Shown: positions 3,901-18,079, counted from the first letter of the stretch. The stretch: 18,079 nt of DNA from a virus (IMGVR_UViG_2698536536_000001:1-18079); one strand, 5' to 3'. Translations and numbers: made by a program. The notes: generated by a model not told the origin, from the letters alone.

Positions 3901-4172
3901 GTATTCGTATTGAAATTGGCGAACGTTATGTCGTTACCAGTGACAGCTTTCAGTTTATTCTCCACGAGAAAAAGAGAGCGGAAAGCGGTAAAAACGCCGG
4001 TCAGGAATGGCTGGCGGTGGTTGGTTATTATCCGAAATTAAGCCAGCTCGTTTCCGGCCTGATGCATCACGATATTCTGACCGGAAGCGCAAAGTCTTTT
4101 GCTGATTTAAACGCGCAGGTTGAGCAACTCAGCAGGCGTTGTTCAGAGGCTTTTGGCTCATATGGCCGTTAA
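3897..4172 (+). CDS. Hypothetical early-region protein (P2 orf83 position)
   Basis: ORF overlapping both neighbours (ATGA-type junctions). Synteny only. Confidence 0.45.
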   Translation: MSIRIEIGERYVVTSDSFQFILHEKKRAESGKNAGQEWLAVVGYYPKLSQLVSGLMHHDILTGSAKSFADLNAQVEQLSRRCSEAFGSYGR

Positions 4173-5753
4173 AGCCTCCGGGCGTTTTGTCCCTCCTTCA
4201 GCATTTGCTGCAGGCACCGGTAAGGCGTTTACCGGTGCTTATGCATGGAACGCGCCACGCGAGGCCGTCGGGCGCGAAAGACCCCTTACACGTGACGAGA
4301 TGCGTCAGGTGCAAGGTGTTTTATCCACGATTAACCGCCTGCCTTACTTTTTGCGCTCGCTGTTTACTTCACGCTATGACTACATCCGGCGCAATAAAAG
4401 CCCGGTATTGAGCGTTACGCCGCCGCAGAGGGTGATGTGGGGATGTTTATCACGCTGACCGCGCCGTCAAAGTATCACCCGACTCGTCAGGTCAGAAAAG
4501 GCGAAAGTAAAACCGTTCAGCTTAATCACGGCTGGAACGATGAGGCATTTAATCCAAAGGATGCGCAGCGTTATCTCTGTCGTATCTGGAGCCTGATGCG
4601 CACGGCATTCAAGGATAATGATTTACAGGCCTACGGTTTGCGTGTCGTTGAGCCACACCACGACGGAACGCCGCACTGGCATATGATGCTTTTTTGTAAT
4701 CCACGCCAGCGTAACCAGATTATTGAAATCATGCGTCGCTATGCGCTCAAAGAGGATGGCGACGAAAGAGGAGCCGCGCGAAACCGTTTTCAGGCAAAAC
4801 ACCTTAACCGGGGCGGTGCTGCGGGGTATATCGCGAAATACATCTCAAAAAACATCGATGGCTATGCACTGGATGGTCAGCTCGATAACGATACCGGCAG
4901 ACCGCTGAAAGACACTGCTGCGGCTGTTACCGCATGGGCGTCAACGTGGCGCATCCCACAATTTAAAACGGTTGGTCTGCCGACAATGGGGGCTTACCGT
5001 GAACTACGCAAATTGCCTCGCGGCGTCAGCATTGCTGATGAGTTTGACGAGCGCGTCGAGGCTGCACGCGCCGCCGCAGACAGTGGTGATTTTGCGTTGT
5101 ATATCAGCGCACAGGGTGGGGCAAATGTCCCGCGCGATTGTCAGACTGTCAGGGTCGCCCGTAGTCCGTCGGATGAAGTTAACGAGTACGAGGAAGAAGT
5201 CGAGAGAGTGGTCGGCATTTACGCGCCGCATCTCGGCGCGCGTCATATTCATATCACCAGAACGACGGACTGGCGCATTGTGCCGAAAGTTCCGGTCGTG
5301 GAGCCTTTGGCTTTAAAAAGCGGCATCGCCGCGCCTCGGAGTCCTGTCAATAACTGTGGAAAGCTCACCGGTGGTGATACTTCGTTACCGGCTCCCACAC
5401 CTTCTGAGCACGCCGCAGCAGTGCTTAATCTGGTAGATGACGGTGTTATCGAATGGAATGACCAGGAGGTCGTGAGGGCGCTCAGAGGTGCATTAAAACA
5501 CGGTCTGAGAAGACCAAACCGTCAGCAAAGAAACGGAAGCCCGTTAAAACCGCATGAAATAGCGCCATCGGCCAGACTGACCCGGTCGGAACGAATGCAA
5601 ATTACCCGTATCCGCGTTGACCTTGCTCAGAACGGTATCAGGCCGCAGCGATGGGAGCTTGAGGCGCTGGCGCGTGGTGCAATTGTGAACTATGGCGCAA
5701 AAGAATTTCATTACCATGTTCAGAAGGCGTGGGAAGCATTTTCGAGGTGGTAA
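4162..5753 (+). pseudogene. A: Rolling-circle replication initiator gene A, apparently frameshifted
   Basis: N-terminal frame MAVKASGRF… from 4162 ends at 4458. The C-terminal frame opens at 4398 and runs to 5753. The two frames are reconciled by a 1-nt change in the A4 run at 4396..4399. The C-terminal part carries an HUH motif (HHDGTPHWHMMLF) and a two-tyrosine motif (YIAKYISK). The combined length of about 530 aa is shorter than the roughly 760 aa I recall for P2 A. Confidence 0.7.
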
Positions 5754-5863
5754 TCTAAATATGAAAAATCTGCACACCGAAACACTCTTGTAGGTTGATA
5801 ATTTGCAAACTAGGTGGATTTACTCTTTGATGTGTAAGAAGTTATACTACAAAAAATTGATTT

Positions 5864-6784
5864 ATGGGCTTGGCGATGTATAACGATCCTTATAGTGACC
5901 CAAAAGCGTGGGAATCATATTTCAAAAATATTGTTTGGCTACATTATAAGCCTGCTAACTGTTGTGACTTGCCAGATGAGCATGGAGGCGACTTTGGGCT
6001 GGAGTGTTACACTCTGAGTGGTCATGTTTTTCAGTGTTACTTGCCTGAGCAGTCGAGTGATATTGATAAGCTTTATAAAGCGCAACAAAAAAAGATTTAT
6101 ACTGATATAAAAAAGTTTTCTCAGGATAACATTAAAGAATTAGAGGAGCTTTTTGGCACATTAAAAATTAGCCGCTGGATATTAGCTACACCATATAATA
6201 AATCGGCGAAATTAAGTCAATATTGCACAAAAAAATCATTAAAAGTAAGAGAGTTAGGGATTTCTTACGTTGCTGATGATTTTCAAATAGTAGTGCAAAC
6301 AGATCGAAATTATATAGAAGAAGCGTTCTTTCTTCGCAAAAATAACTATCAATTAAGCTTTAATATAAATGATGCGACGGCTGAGAATGCTGCTAACTTT
6401 ATTAGTGAAAATACATCTTTTTTAGATAAGCTAAATTTAAAATTACCTAAGATAAATGATGATGTATCTAGGCAGGGTTTATATAGAGAGTTTTTAATAC
6501 AAAAATATCTTGATTATCAAAACTTGCTGGATGCTTTGAAGAGAGACTGGGTTGATATCTATGAAATTATCTATAACTGTGTTCAACATAGAGAACGTAA
6601 TTTGGTAGGTCTCTTTCTTCTTACTTCATCAGATGCGAAACCATCAGATATAATGAAAGATGAAATCGCTTTGTTAAAGAAATGTATTGAAGAGGAAGTT
6701 AGTACGCTTAAACAGGCTGACTTGGATAAGATAACATGGGGAGTTATTTCTGATTGGCTTATAAGATGCCCTTTAGATTTTTAG
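5864..6784 (+). CDS. Cargo gene 1: unknown 306-aa protein, candidate effector of a defence operon
   Basis: Long ORF in a sharply AT-rich block directly after A, in the P2 tin/old hotspot position. N-terminal Cys/His-rich patch (NCCDLPDEHGGDFGLECYTLSGHVFQCY). No motif assignable by eye. Confidence 0.6.
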   Translation: MGLAMYNDPYSDPKAWESYFKNIVWLHYKPANCCDLPDEHGGDFGLECYTLSGHVFQCYLPEQSSDIDKLYKAQQKKIYTDIKKFSQDNIKELEELFGTLKISRWILATPYNKSAKLSQYCTKKSLKVRELGISYVADDFQIVVQTDRNYIEEAFFLRKNNYQLSFNINDATAENAANFISENTSFLDKLNLKLPKINDDVSRQGLYREFLIQKYLDYQNLLDALKRDWVDIYEIIYNCVQHRERNLVGLFLLTSSDAKPSDIMKDEIALLKKCIEEEVSTLKQADLDKITWGVISDWLIRCPLDF

Positions 6785-6785
6785 A

Positions 6786-7262
6786 ATGGAAAAGCAAATG
6801 CATATAACGATAGATGAAATAATAGGAAGGCCGTTTACGTTTAATAAACGACCTGAACATTTGCCATGTGATATGAGACCATTGTGGCGTTGCAGTTTGT
6901 TGCTGATAATATTCCTTGTCACAGGGAGAGCTGGTTGCTGTTCTTTAAAAAAACTTCATTTAATTAATTGGATGTTAAAGTCAGAGAATAATGAAGCAAT
7001 GTTTGAATTCTGGCTTTTAAACAAAGAAGGTTTAAAGCCTGAAGTAAGATTGGATCCAACTTTAGATAGAGCAATACAGCTATTATTAGCAGAGGATTTT
7101 ATTTTGAGAAATGAACGAGCGTTCAAAATAAATGAAAAGGGGCTTAAGGTCGCTGAGAAATTGCTTTCTCTTGATGTGTTCAAAGAAGAAAGGTTGGTGC
7201 TAAATAAACATAAGGCTGGACTGTCCGAAACTAACATTAATAAAATATTTCAGGTGGGTTAA
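6786..7262 (+). CDS. Cargo gene 2: unknown 158-aa protein
   Basis: Starts 2 bp after the gene 1 stop and ends 1 bp before gene 3. Same AT-rich composition. Contains one hydrophobic stretch (LWRCSLLLIIFLVTG). Confidence 0.55.
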   Translation: MEKQMHITIDEIIGRPFTFNKRPEHLPCDMRPLWRCSLLLIIFLVTGRAGCCSLKKLHLINWMLKSENNEAMFEFWLLNKEGLKPEVRLDPTLDRAIQLLLAEDFILRNERAFKINEKGLKVAEKLLSLDVFKEERLVLNKHKAGLSETNINKIFQVG

Positions 7263-7263
7263 T

Positions 7264-9285
7264 ATGTCGTTGGAAATTATTTCATTGGAGTTAGTAGCAA
7301 ATACTTCGGATGGGCGTTATGGTGTTAGTATACCTTTTTCAAATGGCTTGTTTTTATTAAGAGTTGAGAATTCTCATGGTAAATCAACTTGCATGAATGG
7401 GATTGCATATGCACTTGGGATGGAAAAGGCATTAGGTGTCGGTTCTGGAAAAATCCCATTCCCTCCATCTTTGACTAGAGCACTAACGACAAAAGATAAT
7501 GTTGAAGTTAGTGTAATATCATCTTATGTTTTGCTAAAAATAAAGAATCATAAGGGAATAGAAGCATCTTTGAAAAGGAATATTATCGGTCACGATAATA
7601 ATAATGTTATTTATATAGATGAGAAGAATAATGTAAAAAGTAAGAGTGGTACTTATTTTTTACATAGAGAGGGCGATACTGAAAGGGAACGTGGTTTCTA
7701 TAAGTGGTTAGCTGATTTTATAGGTTGGAGTTTGCCAAATGTTCCAAACCATAATGGGAAGGACACTATTCTTTATCCATCCGTACTTTTCCCTGCATGG
7801 TATGTTGAGCAAAAAAAAGGATGGTCGTCAATTATGGCGACTGTACCAACACAATTTGGAATTAAAGAGCCAAAGAAAAGAGCTCTAGAATTTTTAATGT
7901 CTCTTGATGTTAATGATAATATTTTATTGCGTAGTTCGTTAAGAAATGAACTTGATATTATTTATCATGATTGGAAGTTAATTAAACACAATGCAGAAGT
8001 TATTGCTTCTAAATTGTCGTCAGTTGTCACAGGGATTCCTGAACAACCAGTGGCAAAATTTGATCATTATAAGATAGATTTGATTATTAAAAATGGTAGT
8101 GTCGTTAGATCTATTGTTGATGTTCGTAATGAACTGGAAAAAGAGTTGCAAGAAATTAAGTTTGACACTCTTGGTGAGCAAGAAGAACAAACTTTACAAT
8201 TATCAGTGGTTAAGTTATTAGGTCAAAAAAATGATGAAATTAACTCTCTGGAATTAAAGATTAAAGAGATTTGTGAGCATAGAAGTTATATTCAATATCA
8301 AATTCAGGCGACCAAAAACAGATTGTATAATCTGTTGGAAGATAAAAGGAAGTATGAAGATTTAAAGAAAATATCATCTTCGGATGCGTATAAGTCAACA
8401 GATTTAATGTCAAATATTTGTCCGACTTGTGGTGCAAGTTATAATGATAATTTGCTAAGTTTTTCATCGCAAGAAAATCTGATGACATATGAAGATAGTT
8501 TGAACTTTATTAAAGAGCAAGTAAAAGCATTTGAGTTTGTTCTGTCGGATAGTGAAAAGCAATTAAAGCTTAAAGATGTTGAGAGGAGTGATTTAGAGGG
8601 GGAAATAGCCAAGATTAGAGTTGATATTAATGCATTAAGGGAGTCAAAATATCCCTCAATGGTTGTTCAGGAGGAGTTTCTGAGACGTAAAATAAACATT
8701 GAGAATAAAATTAATGCCATTAACGATGGCATTAAAAGTATATTGGACATTAGACTGGAGTTGGATTCATTACACCGTAGATATAAAAAGCTTATCGCGA
8801 AAAGAAAAGGGTTGCCAGATAATTTCTTGTCGCGTAATGATGCCGATAAGTTAAAATTTCTTAATAAAGAAGTCGTTGCACGATTAGAAAAATATAATTT
8901 TACAAGTTTTGATTCTAAACTTGTGTCAATATCAGAAGATAATTACTTACCTACTAGGGAAGGATATGATATAGGTTTTGACACATCAGCTAGTGATGGA
9001 ATAAGAATCATTTGGGGTTATTTAATAAGTTTATTTGTTGTTGGTTCTAAATTTCAAACAAATCACCCTGGATTGATTGTGTTTGATGAGCCTCGTCAAC
9101 AAGAAGCAAATAAAGTAAGTTTTGCCGAGTTACTTAAAGATGCTGCAGAAACAACAAAAGGACAAGGGCAGATCATTTTTGCTACATCAGAAGATGAAAA
9201 TGTCTTAAAAGAGGCATTAGAAGGGTATGACTATACAATGATATCCTTTGATAAGAACAATGGGAAATTGTTGAGGAAATTATAA
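7264..9285 (+). CDS. Cargo gene 3: SMC/Rad50-like ABC ATPase with coiled-coil arms, 673 aa
   Basis: N-terminal Walker A-like P-loop VENSHGKST (about 7366..7389). Long K/E/L-rich heptad-like middle region. CPTC motif at 8419..8430 near the middle of the coiled coil. C-terminal Walker B/D-loop GLIVFDEP (about 9071..9094). Confidence 0.75.
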   Translation: MSLEIISLELVANTSDGRYGVSIPFSNGLFLLRVENSHGKSTCMNGIAYALGMEKALGVGSGKIPFPPSLTRALTTKDNVEVSVISSYVLLKIKNHKGIEASLKRNIIGHDNNNVIYIDEKNNVKSKSGTYFLHREGDTERERGFYKWLADFIGWSLPNVPNHNGKDTILYPSVLFPAWYVEQKKGWSSIMATVPTQFGIKEPKKRALEFLMSLDVNDNILLRSSLRNELDIIYHDWKLIKHNAEVIASKLSSVVTGIPEQPVAKFDHYKIDLIIKNGSVVRSIVDVRNELEKELQEIKFDTLGEQEEQTLQLSVVKLLGQKNDEINSLELKIKEICEHRSYIQYQIQATKNRLYNLLEDKRKYEDLKKISSSDAYKSTDLMSNICPTCGASYNDNLLSFSSQENLMTYEDSLNFIKEQVKAFEFVLSDSEKQLKLKDVERSDLEGEIAKIRVDINALRESKYPSMVVQEEFLRRKINIENKINAINDGIKSILDIRLELDSLHRRYKKLIAKRKGLPDNFLSRNDADKLKFLNKEVVARLEKYNFTSFDSKLVSISEDNYLPTREGYDIGFDTSASDGIRIIWGYLISLFVVGSKFQTNHPGLIVFDEPRQQEANKVSFAELLKDAAETTKGQGQIIFATSEDENVLKEALEGYDYTMISFDKNNGKLLRKL

Positions 9286-9408: not shown

Positions 9409-9427
9409 GGCGAGGCGGGGAAAGCAC
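9409..9427. other. Putative cos site (19-nt cohesive end ggcgaggcggggaaagcac)
   Basis: Matches the P2 cohesive-end sequence as I recall it. Lies in the GC-rich intergenic region between the hotspot cargo and Q, where cos sits in P2. Confidence 0.55.
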
Positions 9428-9565
9428 TGCGCGCTGGCGGTGGTGCTGATTTTATTTTCCAGCGTCTCAGCGCGTCGTGACGGCGCTTAGTCTGCCCGTT
9501 GGGGGTTGGTGTGTCTGCGGGGTGTTTTGTGCGGTGGTGAGCGAGTGAGGGCGTGATGACGGGGT

Positions 9566-9589
9566 ATAAAAAAGCCGCCCGCAGGCGGC
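9566..9589 (-). terminator. Rho-independent terminator downstream of Q
   Basis: Minus-strand hairpin gccgcc-tgcg-ggcggc (stems at 9574..9579 and 9584..9589) followed by a U-run (a-run 9566..9573 on the plus strand), directly 3' of the Q stop. Confidence 0.5.
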
Positions 9590-9594
9590 GATGT

Positions 9595-10629
9595 TCAGCC
9601 GTTGTCAGTGTCCAGTGAGTAGTTTTTAAAGCGGATGACCTCCTGACCGAGCCAGCCGTTTATCTCGCGGATCCTGTCCTGTAGCGGGATAAGCTCATTG
9701 CGGACAAAGACCTTTGCCACTTTCTCAATATCACCCAGCGACCCGACGTTCTCCGGCTTGCCGCCCATCAACTGAAAGGGGATGCGGTGCGCGTCCAGCA
9801 GGTCAGCGGCGCTGGCTTTTTTGATATTAAAAAAATCGTCCTTCGTTGCCACTTCACTGAGCGGGATAATTTTGATGCCGTCGGCTTTCCCCTGTGGGGC
9901 ATAGAGAAACAGATTTTTAAAGTTGTTGCGGCCTTTCGACTTCACCATGTTTTCGCGGAGCATTTCGATATCGTTGCGATCCTGCACGGCATCAGTGACG
10001 TACATGATGTATCCGGCATGAGCGCCGTTTTCGTAATACTTGCGGCGGAACAGTGTGGCTGATTCATTCAGCCAGGCAGAATTAAGGGCGCTGAGATATT
10101 CCGGCAGGCCGTACAGCTCCTGATTGATATCCGGCTCCAGCAGGTGAAACACGGAGCCGGGCGTGAAGGCTGTCGGCTCGTTGAAGGACGGCACCCACCA
10201 GTAAACATCCTCCTCCACGCCACGGCGGGTATATTTTGCCGGTGAGGTTTCCAGTCTAATGACCTTACCGGTGGTGCTGTAACGCTTTTCCAGAAACGCA
10301 TTACCGAACACCAGAAAATCCAGCACAAAGCGGCTGAAATCCTGTTGCGAAAGCCACGGATGCGGGATAAATGTCGAGGCCAGAATATTGCGTTTAACGT
10401 AAATCGGTGAGCTGTGATGCACGGCAGCACGCAGGCTTTTCGCCAGACCGGTAAAGCTGACCGGCGGCTCATACCATCTGCCGTTACTGATGCACTCGAC
10501 GTAATCCAGAATGTCACGGCGGTCGAGTACCGGCACCGGCTCACCAAAGGTGAAAGCCTCCATTTTCGGGGCGCTGGCGGTCATTTTTTTTGCCTCAGGT
10601 TGCGGTGTTTTCCCTTTTTTCTTGCTCAT
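9595..10629 (-). CDS. Q: Portal (capsid) protein Q, 344 aa
   Basis: 344 aa, the length I recall for P2 Q. N-terminus MSKKKGKTPQP… Adjacent to cos and in P2 orientation. Confidence 0.85.
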   Translation of the reverse strand: MSKKKGKTPQPEAKKMTASAPKMEAFTFGEPVPVLDRRDILDYVECISNGRWYEPPVSFTGLAKSLRAAVHHSSPIYVKRNILASTFIPHPWLSQQDFSRFVLDFLVFGNAFLEKRYSTTGKVIRLETSPAKYTRRGVEEDVYWWVPSFNEPTAFTPGSVFHLLEPDINQELYGLPEYLSALNSAWLNESATLFRRKYYENGAHAGYIMYVTDAVQDRNDIEMLRENMVKSKGRNNFKNLFLYAPQGKADGIKIIPLSEVATKDDFFNIKKASAADLLDAHRIPFQLMGGKPENVGSLGDIEKVAKVFVRNELIPLQDRIREINGWLGQEVIRFKNYSLDTDNG

Positions 10630-14231: not shown

Positions 14232-14412
14232 GTTGTATGAGCTTACATATCTATTGCGTAGAGTAAAGCATAATCTGACAGTCCGCTCTGTGCCAGAAGC
14301 GGACGTAGCGGCAGCATACATAACCTTATGATTTCTTAAAATTTTCCGCTTGGTTTCTGATTGACTAATGAAAATTAATTGAAATTATAAAGCATTCGCA
14401 GTAACTTGTGCG

Positions 14413-14658
14413 GTGCCGATAATTTCATTCTACCCAATATCATTTATGATTGTAGATAAGAGTAGTGAAAAATATAACAACGGATATAGTGTTGCAATAC
14501 CACTTGGAGCCGTGAAAATGGAACTGGCCGATGATGTACTAAAAATAAACCTTTCATCATGGAATGATATTAAAACAGGATTTCCTTACACAGGGATTAA
14601 TGAGTATGAGTTACTCATATTAGATGAGAATCTTTCATTTATAACTTATAAAAAATAA
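14413..14658 (+). CDS. Hypothetical small protein in the Z/fun hotspot position (start uncertain)
   Basis: AT-rich ORF between G and FI. The ORF-track start is a GTG; an alternative ATG lies at 14446. No clear SD. No recognisable motif. Confidence 0.3.
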   Translation: MPIISFYPISFMIVDKSSEKYNNGYSVAIPLGAVKMELADDVLKINLSSWNDIKTGFPYTGINEYELLILDENLSFITYKK

Positions 14659-14713
14659 CAATTAACAATACTTCACTTATGTGTGAGTGGTTTTAAAGAG
14701 TAAATAATTCATA

Positions 14714-15016
14714 ATGGAAAAAAGTATGACAATTGAAACCATAAAAATACTAGCGGCAATTAGTAGCATCATTGGTTCTATGATTCTTGCCTATCGAGTT
14801 ACAGGGATTCTTGCAGCACTTTCTCTTGCAATAGATTGCCATGAAGAAAACATTAAACAATTAATGCCAACCAATAAGGGGGATGTTTATTATCTCGCAA
14901 ATGCAACTACGCACGTTAAAAATGCGCAAAAGAAACCGCTTCTAATCACGGGGTTTATCTTTCTAATTGCATCTGGTTTTTTGCAGTTTACAGCGTTGAT
15001 AATGGCAAATATTTAA
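14714..15016 (+). CDS. Small membrane protein, about 100 aa with two predicted transmembrane helices
   Basis: Hydrophobic segments IKILAAISSIIGSMILAY…GILAALSLAI and LLITGFIFLIASGFLQFTALIMANI. AT-rich. Followed by a terminator at 15186..15213. Confidence 0.5.
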   Translation: MEKSMTIETIKILAAISSIIGSMILAYRVTGILAALSLAIDCHEENIKQLMPTNKGDVYYLANATTHVKNAQKKPLLITGFIFLIASGFLQFTALIMANI

Positions 15017-15185
15017 CAATGGAATGATACCACCGGTGGTGCGGCTGAAACGATTTGTACGTCATTTAAGCCGCATCGAAATTTAAAGTAACGTCCGCAA
15101 TTCGCTCCAAGCAGACTGTCAGATTTGATAGCGTTTTGGCTATGTAAATTGTCAGTCGGAAAATGAGTGAATACAAATCAGGACA

Positions 15186-15308: not shown

Positions 15309-16145
15309 ATGAGTGACTATCATCACGGCGTGCAGGTGCTGGAGATTAACGACGGCACCCGCGTCATTTCCACCGTATCCACTGCCATTGTCGGCATGGT
15401 CTGCACGGCCAGCGATGCGGATGCGGAAACCTTTCCCCTCAATAAACCTGTGCTGATTACCAATGTGCAGAGCGCAATTGCAAAGGCCGGTAAAAAAGGC
15501 ACGCTGGCGGCGTCGCTGCAGGCCATCGCCGACCAGTCAAAACCGGTCACCGTTGTTGTGCGCGTGGAAGACGGCACCGGCGACGACGAGGAAACGAAAC
15601 TTGCGCAGACCGTTTCCAATATCATCGGCACCACCGACGAAAACGGTCAGTACACCGGCGTAACGGCAAAGTGGTTACACACCAAAGACCCGAAGCCGCA
15701 AAAGCAGAAGGTAAAACTGAAACGCAAAAAGAAAGAAAAACACCTGCGCGCACTGGAGCACCCGAAAGCGAAACCGGTCACGCAGAAGAAAGCGCCAAAA
15801 GTACCGGAAGCGCGCGAAGGTGAATACATGGCCGGTGAAGCTGACAACGTTTTTGCCCTGACTACGGTATATGCCACGAAAGCACAGGCCATGCGCGCCG
15901 CTCAGGCGAAGTGGGATAAACTGCAACGGGGCGTTGCGGAGTTCTCCATCAGCCTTGCCACTGGTCGTGCTGATATTTACACGGAAACACCGGTCAGAGT
16001 GTCAGGCTTTAAGCGCGTCATAGACGAGCAGGACTGGACCATCACTAAGGTGACACATTTTCTGAATAATAGCGGCTTCACGACGTCCTTGGAGCTTGAG
16101 GTCAGGCTTTCTGATGTGGAGTACGAAACAGAAGATGATGAGTAA
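15309..16145 (+). pseudogene. In-frame fusion remnant: tail sheath FI N-terminus joined to tail protein D C-terminus (yegZ-like)
   Basis: First ~118 residues ([14 protein letters not shown]…TDENGQYTG) match the recalled P2 FI sheath N-terminus. The C-terminal ~100 residues lie immediately upstream of ogr, where gene D ends in P2. The two are joined by a Lys-rich linker. FII, E, T, U and most of FI and D are missing. Confidence 0.65.
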
Positions 16146-16226
16146 TGTTTTTATTTTATCTGTTTGTTTTATAAGGATAAATTAACTAAAATGGCACCGT
16201 CAACAAAACCGGAAGAGGTGCTCGCG

Positions 16227-16445
16227 ATGTTTCATTGTCCTTTATGCCAGCATGCCGCACATGCGCGTACAAGTCGCTATATCACTGACACGACAAAAGA
16301 GCGTTATCACCAGTGTCAGAACGTGAATTGTAGCGCCACGTTCATCACTTATGAGTCGGTACAGCGATACATCGTGAAGCCGGGAGAAGTCCACGCCGTA
16401 AGGCCGCACCCGTTGCCATCAGGGCAGCAAATTATGTGGATGTAA
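16227..16445 (+). CDS. ogr: Late-gene transcription activator Ogr, zinc-finger protein, 72 aa
   Basis: Sequence MFHCPLCQHAAHARTSRYITDTTKERYHQCQNVNCSATFITYESVQRYIV… matches recalled P2 Ogr, with C-x2-C…C-x4-C zinc-finger cysteines. Start taken at the internal ATG with SD ggaagagg, not the upstream ATG at 16164. Confidence 0.9.
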   Translation: MFHCPLCQHAAHARTSRYITDTTKERYHQCQNVNCSATFITYESVQRYIVKPGEVHAVRPHPLPSGQQIMWM

Positions 16446-16717: not shown

Positions 16718-18079
16718 TCACTTACCGTGGGGATTACGCGTGGTTTCCCCGGAGAAATTACGCATCAGCAGCGCGTAATTGAGCTCAAGATCCTGCGGGA
16801 CCGGGAGCCACACAGTATAACCATCGCCTGGTGCTATCGGCATAGCTTCGCCTTTGGCGTTTTCCATGTGCTCAAGGGTAAAATTAATGTTGCCTTGCGG
16901 CGTCATCAGCTCAAGGCTGTCGCCAACGGAGAATTTATTTTTCACCGCTACCGCCGCGAGGTCCCCCTTGCGCTCACCGGTAAACTCACCAACAAACTGC
17001 TGGCGGTCAGAAACTGAATAACCGTATTCGTAGTTCTGATAATCGTCGTGAGTATGACGACGCAGGAAACCTTCGGTATAGCCACGATGCGCCAGACCTT
17101 CCAGAGTTTCCAGCAGGCTGGTATCGAACGGTTTTCCCGCAGCGGCGTCATCGATAGCTTTGCGGTAAACCTGTGCGGTGCGTGCACAATAGTAGAAAGA
17201 TTTGGTACGACCTTCGATTTTCAGCGAATGCACGCCCATTTTGGTCAGGCGTTCTACATGGGCGATGGCGCGCAGATCTTTCGAGTTCATGATGTAAGTG
17301 CCGTGCTCATCTTCAAACGCGGTCATATACTCGCCCGGACGCTGGGCTTCTTCGATCATAAACACTTTGTCGGTTGGCGCGCCGATACCTAGCGTCGGCT
17401 CAACATTTTGCACCGGAATCGGCTCGTACTTGTGTACGATGTTGCCAACGTCATCTTCTTTCCCTTCCTGGACGTTGTACTCCCAGCGGCAGGCGTTGGT
17501 GCAGGTACCCTGGTTCGGATCGCGCTTGTTGATATAGCCAGAGAGCAGGCAGCGACCGGAGTAGGCCATGCACAGCGCACCGTGAACGAAGATCTCGATC
17601 TCCATATCCGGCACCTGATTGCGGATCTCTTCAATCTCTTCCAGCGACAGCTCGCGAGAGAGGATCACGCGGGTCAGGCCCATTTGCTGCCAGAATTTCA
17701 CCGTCGCCCAGTTTACGGCGTTAGCCTGCACCGAGAGGTGGATCGGCATTTCAGGGAAGTGCTCACGCACCAGCATAATCAGCCCTGGATCGGACATAAT
17801 CAGCGCATCCGGCCCCATTTCCACCACCGGTTTCAGGTCACGGATAAAGGTTTTCAGCTTGGCGTTGTGCGGTGCAATGTTGACCACGACATAAAACTTT
17901 TTCCCCAGCGCGTGGGCTTCATTGATGCCGAGCTGAAGATTTTCGTGGTTGAATTCGTTGTTGCGCACACGCAGGGAGTAACGCGGCTGGCCCGCATAAA
18001 CAGCATCTGCGCCATAAGCGAAAGCGTAACGCATATTTTTCAGCGTTCCCGCCGGGGAAAGGAGTTCCGGTTTAAACAT
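16718..18079 (-). CDS. yegQ: U32-family peptidase-like protein YegQ (TrhP), 453 aa, complete
   Basis: Full-length ORF from MFKPELLSPAGTLKNMRYAFAYGADAVYAGQ… matching recalled E. coli YegQ. The start codon is at the last three bases of the window. Confidence 0.9.
   Translation of the reverse strand: MFKPELLSPAGTLKNMRYAFAYGADAVYAGQPRYSLRVRNNEFNHENLQLGINEAHALGKKFYVVVNIAPHNAKLKTFIRDLKPVVEMGPDALIMSDPGLIMLVREHFPEMPIHLSVQANAVNWATVKFWQQMGLTRVILSRELSLEEIEEIRNQVPDMEIEIFVHGALCMAYSGRCLLSGYINKRDPNQGTCTNACRWEYNVQEGKEDDVGNIVHKYEPIPVQNVEPTLGIGAPTDKVFMIEEAQRPGEYMTAFEDEHGTYIMNSKDLRAIAHVERLTKMGVHSLKIEGRTKSFYYCARTAQVYRKAIDDAAAGKPFDTSLLETLEGLAHRGYTEGFLRRHTHDDYQNYEYGYSVSDRQQFVGEFTGERKGDLAAVAVKNKFSVGDSLELMTPQGNINFTLEHMENAKGEAMPIAPGDGYTVWLPVPQDLELNYALLMRNFSGETTRNPHGK

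Follow-up and report, generated by a model that had tools for sequence, protein, structure and literature searches.

The expanded Lamassu family was defined by Millman et al. (2022), and its members have been noted in the hotspots described by Rousset et al. (2022). Cryo-electron microscopy of the systems from Vibrio cholerae, Salmonella and Bacillus revealed an LmuA1:LmuB2:LmuC1 complex that keeps the monomeric LmuA sequestered. In the characterised systems, the release is triggered by DNA ends, in vivo by a transient intermediate at the lambda origin; the freed LmuA tetramerises and, with its nuclease domains in pairs, cleaves DNA at low specificity, which leads to abortive infection. Haudiquet et al. 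(2025), who proposed that Lamassu evolved from SbcCD, described a short type with an LmuB of about 600 aa, the Walker B motif hhhhD[Q/S/T/E] and zero to two CxxC motifs, and a long type with an LmuB of about 800 aa and the Walker B motif hhhhDD; the LmuA C-terminal domains of the short type are bundles of five to six helices. Here, we analysed an 18,079-nucleotide (nt) stretch of viral DNA (IMGVR_UViG_2698536536_000001:1-18079; the whole stretch is referred to as the window), of which the block at positions 5864-9285 very probably represents a complete type II (three-gene, ABC-3C) Lamassu system, lmuA-lmuC-lmuB, that forms the accessory cargo at the cos-proximal A-Q hotspot in a now-defective P2-like prophage.

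Identification of the three-gene operon

The block consists of three genes:
5864..6784, plus strand: lmuA, 306 aa as the maximal open reading frame (ORF) and likely 302 aa, with a predicted PD-(D/E)xK-fold N-terminal domain (residues ~1-160) and a predicted six-helix C-terminal bundle (~173-301)
6786..7262, plus strand: lmuC, 158 aa as the maximal ORF and likely 154 aa, the small middle component with a probable C-terminal winged helix
7264..9285, plus strand: lmuB, 673 aa, a Rad50/SMC-like ABC ATPase whose split head carries an antiparallel coiled coil with a single zinc hook

In this order, the three proteins matched the PADLOC models for LmuA (PDLC03852, expectation value (E) 1.1e-29, profile positions 19-333 of 336), LmuC (PDLC03871, E 2.5e-23, positions 1-148 of 156) and LmuB (PDLC03863, E 1.1e-98, positions 1-604 of 610). 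Nine further LmuB models were also matched by the third protein. No Old or other defence family besides Lamassu was found by PADLOC for the three proteins, Pfam and NCBIfam returned nothing above threshold for any of them, and no non-defence family was matched in these profile searches. The features by which a Lamassu system is recognised, i.e., an LmuB ATPase, an adjoining LmuC and a two-domain LmuA that are co-inherited as a three-gene operon, were all found. The first-pass annotation, which was made from the sequence alone, had read the last gene as an SMC/Rad50-like ATPase and the gene order as resembling the Lamassu/DdmABC type (LmuA-LmuC-LmuB), and both readings were borne out by the PADLOC assignments, the folds and the intact LmuB motifs. 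It had left gene 1 without a known effector domain, which agrees with the empty Pfam and NCBIfam searches; the predicted fold is that of a PD-(D/E)xK-like nuclease. Its suggestion of a divergent or undescribed variant was not supported, in view of the dedicated PADLOC models, the PHROGs entries and the listing of the operon as system #51 by Rousset et al. (2022). The system in the window is a catalogued member of the well-characterised Lamassu family and not a new variant.

Foldseek searches of the PDB with the predicted structures of the single chains yielded solved LmuA and LmuB proteins as the best matches. For the LmuA model, these were the entries 9nxx and 9hr5, and for LmuB, the top four were all LmuB-containing Lamassu entries (9uxh_F, 8.9e-15; Salmonella 9hqx_B, 1e-13; 9hqu_A; and the type I entry 9ux7_A), which ranked ahead of Rad50, SMC, MukB and JetC. 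The V. cholerae (DdmABC, LmuA-LmuC-LmuB) and Salmonella enterica (LmuACB) systems, which are the best structural matches of both models, have the same gene order and roles as the window operon and share with it a PD-(D/E)xK-fold effector and a short-type Walker B motif. However, no sequence similarity between them and the window proteins was detectable at the level of hidden Markov models. The window LmuA is shorter (about 300 aa compared to 355-391 aa), does not belong to the Cap4/DUF4297 type and has no counterpart of the catalytic lysine mutated in V. cholerae (K57) and Salmonella (K68), whereas the window LmuB, with 673 aa, is longer than the V. cholerae and Salmonella chains (571-653 aa). 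The zinc hook is CPTC in the window LmuB, while the Salmonella LmuB has one and the V. cholerae LmuB has none. A further difference from these systems is that no Pfam ABC-3C CTD family matched the window LmuA and no ABC-3C MC family matched the window LmuC; since the former match is lacking, we infer, rather than read from a domain family, that the LmuA C-terminal domain docks on LmuB/LmuC.

The operon is conserved as a unit. A triad of about 300, 155 and 675 aa, encoded by abutting or overlapping genes, recurs across five phyla and was found with the same order and similar sizes in Gammaproteobacteria, Alphaproteobacteria, Cyanobacteria, Bacillota and Actinomycetota. Homologous triads are usually located on plasmids or islands, such as a chromosomal island in Serratia fonticola, an AlpA/DUF3987 island in Klebsiella pneumoniae and plasmids of Clostridium botulinum, Arthrobacter, Agrobacterium (pTi) and Thioclava; the triad was also found in Shewanella baltica and a Leptolyngbya cyanobacterium. 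For all three genes, the proportion of nonsynonymous differences (pN) was 0.14-0.44 compared to 0.69-0.81 for synonymous ones (pS), the synonymous divergence being saturated, and, judged from these alignments, the three-gene family is under strong purifying selection. Chance ORFs are excluded because hundreds of homologues exist for these three long ORFs at 33% GC and pN is much lower than pS.

The coordinates and sizes of the three packed same-strand ORFs were as first annotated, and the gaps of 1-2 bp that had been proposed between them hold for the maximal ORFs, which are separated by single nucleotides. They do not hold for the likelier starts of gene 1 (5876, 302 aa) and gene 2 (6798, 154 aa), which were chosen based on the RefSeq annotation of an identical copy, the homologue alignments and the Shine-Dalgarno positions, and which make the first intergenic gap 13 nt instead of 1. 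The lmuC start at 6798 is indicated by a GGA 7 nt upstream as well as by the alignment, and lmuB is preceded by the Shine-Dalgarno sequence AGGTGG, 6 nt upstream. The AT-richness and the P2 tin/old cargo slot that had been claimed for the block were also confirmed. Its GC content is about 33%, against 53-56% in the flanking P2 sequences; in sliding windows, it is 0.31-0.36 over 5750-9250, compared to 0.52-0.57 in the upstream gene A and 0.53-0.59 in the downstream Q/P region.

LmuB and LmuC

The ATPase and zinc-hook motifs of LmuB are intact, with their invariance judged across 29 homologues:
7369..7389, plus strand: LmuB Walker A, NSHGKST (K40), with N36, G39, K40 and S41 invariant; codons verified
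8419..8430, plus strand: LmuB zinc hook, CPTC (C386-C389), at the coiled-coil apex, with C386, P387 and C389 invariant
8986..9102, plus strand: LmuB signature-like SASDG (S577, D578) and Walker B LIVFDE (D608, E609), invariant columns; codons verified

The Q-loop glutamine, Q183, is likewise invariant and present in the window copy. In the AlphaFold2 model of LmuB (predicted local distance difference test score of 85), a long helical arm leads from the N-terminal half of the head to an apex of low confidence, from which a return arm runs to the C-terminal half; the CPTC motif sits in this apex between the helices at 308-372 and 409-460. Over residues 337-420, the LmuB profile weakly matched the Rad50 zinc-hook structure 1l8d. 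In comparison with the short type, the Walker B motif (hhhhDE), the single CxxC and the six-helix LmuA domain agree, while the length of 673 aa falls between the means of the two types.

The assignment of LmuC is supported by its position, since a gene of the same size occupies this place in all nine of the homologous loci that were examined. The winged helix-turn-helix (wHTH) signals were below the threshold (Pfam HTH_45 in 6 of 15 members; Sso10a with an E of 0.05), but they fit the label "wHTH" that was given to LmuC by Millman et al. (2022). No alignment with the LmuC of E. coli SE15 was obtained using hhalign, for which a single-sequence target offers low power. Many LmuC homologues (e.g., in E. 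coli ARL09/232) are called "serine/threonine protein kinase" by NCBI. Because the protein has 154 aa and no kinase-domain match, this name is implausible and appears to be a propagated misannotation.

Genomic slot of the cassette

The A-cos-Q locus is a defence hotspot of P2-like phages and carries old and tin in P2 itself (Rousset et al. 2022). The window cassette is assigned to this slot because gene A lies upstream of it and cos and the portal gene Q lie downstream. The features that delimit the slot are as follows:
4120..5753, plus strand: left flank, replication gene A pseudogene, consisting of two ORFs (4120-4458 and 4437-5753) that both match phrog_91
5819..5848, plus strand: candidate sigma-70 promoter, TTTACT-18-TATACT, within the AT-rich 110 bp that separate gene A from lmuA
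9409..9427, no strand assigned: right edge of the cargo slot, a 19-nt sequence, GGCGAGGCGGGGAAAGCAC, read from the DNA, which we take to be the P2-type cos cohesive-end sequence
9595..10629, minus strand: right flank, portal gene Q, intact with 344 aa (phrog_68, E 1.4e-176)

Upstream, the cassette adjoins the gene for the P2 replication endonuclease A (phrog_91, E 2e-199). The spacer at 5754-5863 is 100% identical to that of the prophage of E. coli PSUO2 and moves together with the cassette; in Serratia and Klebsiella, the cassette homology starts at 5815-5836. The P2 genes old and tin occupy the same A-cos slot and have the same presumed role, i.e., the exclusion of other phages, but their proteins are unrelated to those of the window. 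In S. fonticola CP072742.1, the cassette (71% nucleotide identity) is followed by a diverged P2-type cos region (9429-9600; GGCGTGGTGGGGATAGCAT), from which it follows that the cos-adjacent position is conserved across genera. The window thus adds another case of a P2-like prophage with Lamassu in the cos-proximal hotspot, which in itself offers little new biology.

The LmuA effector and the proposed mechanism

The scientific interest of the operon lies in its effector, as this widespread LmuA family combines a predicted nuclease fold with active-site residues that depart from the canonical signature. In the AlphaFold2 model of LmuA, the N-terminal domain is alpha/beta and the C-terminal one is made up of six helices, the latter in agreement with the C-terminal domains of short-Lamassu LmuA proteins. 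The alpha-beta-beta-beta-alpha-beta core of the PD-(D/E)xK superfamily is present in the predicted N-terminal fold, which in the structure search matched the nucleases FokI, CdiA-CT, BspD6I and Can2 as well as the solved LmuA. Based on this model, the domain is placed under the PD-(D/E)xK fold but, since the Pfam and hhalign comparisons given below detected no homology, not under Cap4 or Mrr. The putative catalytic residues are encoded at:
5987..6094, plus strand: putative LmuA active-site motifs G42-D43-F-G45-L-E47, Q57-C58-Y59 and K77 (then D81 and K84); codons verified

In an alignment of 138 diverse representatives, which were 22-36% identical to the window protein, D43, Q57, K77, K193 and C302 were invariant (138/138), while G42, G45, E/D47, Y59, D81, K84 and W298 were nearly so. 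D43 and E/D47 precede beta-2, Q57 lies in beta-3 and the invariant K77 in the next helix, which makes it the obvious candidate for the missing lysine. A role of Y59 as a tyrosine nucleophile was rejected, because this position is Tyr in 132 of the 138 members and Phe in the remaining six, so the hydroxyl is dispensable. A profile search of 1.84 billion representatives showed that the family has at least 919 clusters at 50% identity (E <= 1e-3). The best 150 matches were practically all full-length proteins of about 300 aa from this same family; hence, among them there was no bridge to a named nuclease family and the N-terminal domain was not found in other architectures.

The validated Lamassu-Mrr system of E. 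coli O150:H5 SE15 (Millman et al. 2022) offers a comparison within the species. Both systems are three-gene E. coli Lamassu with an effector of the restriction-endonuclease fold and a wHTH-type LmuC, and there is a likeness between the GDFGLEC...FQCY motif of the window LmuA, GDKGRD...YQCK of the SE15 LmuA and GDGGIDG...VQAK of E. coli Mrr. The SE15 LmuA, however, has 379 aa and retains the lysine (QCK), in the place of which the window LmuA has a tyrosine. The pattern of the window LmuA family, G-D-x-G-[IL]-[ED]...Q-C-Y, resembles GDGGID...QxK of the Mrr type apart from the tyrosine at the position of the catalytic lysine. In the accessible part of the DefenseFinder table of Haudiquet et al. 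(2025), a system with an LmuA of 304 aa and an LmuC of 159 aa is labelled Lamassu_Mrr, and this size signature hints, suggestively only, that current tools would give the same name to the window system.

Several observations weigh against the reading of the block as a Lamassu system with a DNA-cutting effector. By sequence, the family profiles of LmuA, LmuC and LmuB did not reach the solved Lamassu chains: the only matches retrieved in the sequence/profile searches of the PDB with the three proteins were Walker A stretches of Rad50/SMC, the zinc hook of Rad50 and noise from coiled coils. It is therefore the predicted structures and the PADLOC models that connect the window proteins to the solved ones. 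The candidate promoter, which scored 9/12 in a consensus scan, is weak when taken alone. The catalytic signature D...(D/E)-x-K of the PD-(D/E)xK superfamily is absent, since beta-3 carries Q57-C58-Y59, without a lysine, throughout the family. Pfam returned only noise for 31 + 138 LmuA family members and no nuclease family in any of the 138; Mrr_cat was not matched by the query or these 138, nor were Cap4/DUF4297 and the NTD(Cap4)-CTD7 architecture by the query or 168 family members. Using hhalign, no alignment of the LmuA profile (138 sequences) was obtained with the SE15 LmuA (probability of 1.1%) or with E. coli K-12 Mrr (0.2%), both being single-sequence targets with low power. In the literature, no experiment was found in which this LmuA subfamily had been tested, and it is not in the cloned-system table of Rousset et al. 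(2022). Given that there is no canonical lysine and no nuclease Pfam match, the nuclease activity of LmuA is plausible rather than established.

The same features of the effector, together with the location of K77, D81 and K84 on one face of the helix after beta-3, would also fit a functional Lamassu in which the LmuA N-terminal domain is no conventional metal-dependent DNase and instead has RNA, single-stranded DNA or structured DNA as its substrate, uses K77 as a relocated lysine, or binds without cleaving. We consider this improbable because the fold matches nucleases and solved LmuA, D43, E/D47 and Q57 occupy the usual PD-(D/E)xK catalytic positions, and the phenylalanine at position 59 in six members counts against a tyrosine nucleophile. 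Moreover, PD-(D/E)xK enzymes are functional with a substituted third position, as in BamHI (E) and BglII (Q). It is possible, though rather doubtful, that the LmuA proteins of about 300 aa from the five phyla form a distinct class of Lamassu effectors, without a lysine in beta-3, reliant on K77 and with another substrate preference or activation geometry. If this is true, these properties may differ from those of the Cap4- and Mrr-type effectors.

If the block is a Lamassu system with a DNA-cutting LmuA, as we prefer, its complex stoichiometry, trigger, nuclease activity and protective phenotype are most likely those of the characterised systems. Two LmuB subunits, with their Rad50-like heads, folded coiled coils and zinc hook, and one LmuC would hold one LmuA via its C-terminal helical domain. 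LmuA would be freed once the LmuB/LmuC module encounters DNA ends, or intermediates of replication, from an infecting phage (or plasmid), and it would then oligomerise by its C-terminal domain, which would bring the PD-(D/E)xK-fold N-terminal domains together. These domains may then degrade DNA indiscriminately, and the cell would be killed or arrested before the phage cycle ends, i.e., by abortive infection.

Decay of the prophage and probable spread of the cassette

The decay of the prophage around an intact operon, which had been noticed in the first annotation, was traced to three deletions in the phage genes by comparison with E. coli PSUO2, whose intact P2-like prophage has the same yegR-side integration site. 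Gene A has a 680-bp out-of-frame internal deletion with its junction at 4404-4406 (PSUO2 locus 7025-7705). At a junction at ~10878, the terminase ATPase gene, of which only the final ~250 bp are left, is fused to the baseplate/tail genes J', I, H and G, which takes away the capsid, lysis and most tail-assembly genes; no genome in the complete E. coli collection spans this junction. The third large deletion (FI' to 'D) is marked by a fusion ORF at 15309-16145 (278 aa), in which the tail-sheath N-terminus (Gp18 domain III N) is joined to the gpD C-terminus (Phage_GPD 194-304). The fusion ORF is followed by ogr (16164-16445) and the host U32 peptidase gene (16718-18079, minus strand). At the left attachment-site region, about 170 bp that lie between yegR and the integrase end in PSUO2 (2772-2942) are gone at window position 323.

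The cassette at 5864-9285 differs from the PSUO2 copy by 1 base in 3,422, or 1 in 3,532 with the spacer included, whereas the adjoining phage genes (4410-5753 and 9286-10629) are 94.5-98.2% identical. On this comparison, the cargo seems to have shifted between diverged P2 backbones recently, and the near-identity of the cassette against its diverged flanks means that its intactness reflects recent spread among P2 backbones more than long-term retention. Among 5,426 complete E. coli genomes, the operon was present in 32, always in the chromosome and at an identity of at least 99.4%, and in a search that included the flanks, it adjoined a replication endonuclease gene in every row listed. Distant blastn searches of the complete E. 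coli genomes returned only these 32 near-identical copies and no diverged one, and a DNA and tblastn search of the phage collection found the operon in no isolated phage genome.

Two of the copies deserve a remark. The copy in E. coli NZ_CM185151.1, with 3,421 bp, is 1 bp shorter and has an extra "AAA family ATPase" coding sequence, which suggests that lmuB is frameshifted in this one among the complete genomes. In E. coli FDAARGOS_1249 (NZ_CP069459.1 263307-268073), an IS5-family transposase gene lies in the ~170 bp upstream of lmuA, i.e., at the gene A end or in the candidate-promoter spacer, and the operon itself is unbroken.

That the operon is a mere passenger, intact only because the prophage decayed recently and silent or non-functional in this host, would be consistent with the weak promoter evidence, the frameshifted lmuB of one complete genome and the single base that separates the cassette from the copy in an intact prophage, which implies that no time has elapsed for visible decay. 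This is quite unlikely, however, as 31 of the 32 complete-genome copies retain the full 3,421-3,423 bp block at an identity of at least 99.4%, purifying selection acts strongly on the entire family, and the cassette and its upstream spacer are better conserved than the surrounding phage backbone. Read as a Lamassu system, the operon is another case of defence cargo that outlived the phage that brought it.

Relation to SbcCD and to other cargo of the hotspot

SbcCD (Mre11-Rad50) shares with the window LmuB a Rad50-type head, a coiled coil and a CxxC zinc hook. In contrast to SbcCD, the window operon has no SbcD/Mre11 nuclease (no phosphoesterase match in genes 1 and 2), a far shorter coiled coil and LmuA and LmuC as partners, and the element is mobile, AT-rich and borne in a hotspot. 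That the operon serves the phage by maintaining its DNA (SbcCD/Rad50-like repair or SMC-like partition) and is not a defence system is hardly credible. In favour of this reading, LmuB falls within the Rad50/SbcC branch of ABC ATPases and about a quarter of P2-like phages have a plasmid-partition system at the A-cos-Q locus (Rousset et al. 2022). Against it, Pfam and NCBIfam found no Mre11/SbcD phosphoesterase, kleisin or ParB-like partner among the three proteins, which match Lamassu-specific PADLOC models and not JetC, MukB or SbcC; the fold search ranked solved LmuB chains above Rad50, SMC and MukB; and the cassette is also found on plasmids and islands apart from any phage.

In E. coli REL606, a three-gene cassette that consists of a hydrolase and an SMC protein (pFR106; Rousset et al. 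2022) occupies the P2 A-cos-Q hotspot, as does the window operon. We assume that it is the same system as the Ec-Lipase Lamassu of E. coli. The latter has been validated and has a short-type LmuB with a zinc hook (Haudiquet et al. 2025); the window LmuB likewise has a zinc hook and resembles the short type in its Walker B motif. The two differ in that the Ec-Lipase effector is a lipase/hydrolase and not of the nuclease fold, LmuB belongs to a different clade and no similarity was detected at the DNA level.

Earlier records and a second island

In Table S5B of Rousset et al. (2022), the window system corresponds to the P2-hotspot system #51, "AAA_13/DUF3732", with 79 occurrences. Its LmuA and LmuC sequences are identical to the window proteins, and its LmuB (WP_106121066), an N-terminally truncated gene call, is identical to the window LmuB in the portion compared. 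WP_106121066 begins at an internal methionine (MNGIAYALG...) and thus does not include the Walker A region, and the same authors flag "1 TM in protein 2" (one transmembrane segment) for the hydrophobic LmuC helix LWRCSLLLIIFLVTG; both the start and the flag are probably annotation artefacts. In PHROGs v4, the three proteins are all present under the label "unknown function", and the RefSeq names are "hypothetical", "coiled-coil domain-containing" or, for LmuC homologues, the kinase name discussed above. The present assignment is of value for annotation, as neither Pfam nor NCBIfam offers a model for the LmuA or the LmuC proteins of this large subfamily.

A second AT-rich island is located at ~14250-15050 (GC 0.32-0.34), directly after the tail-fibre assembly gene and in the position of the P2 Z/fun slot. 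Of its two small ORFs, one spans 14413-14658 (81 aa) and the other, which encodes two hydrophobic segments, spans 14714-15016 (100 aa). There was no significant Pfam, PADLOC or PHROG match for either, and the island may be a second, uncharacterised cargo.

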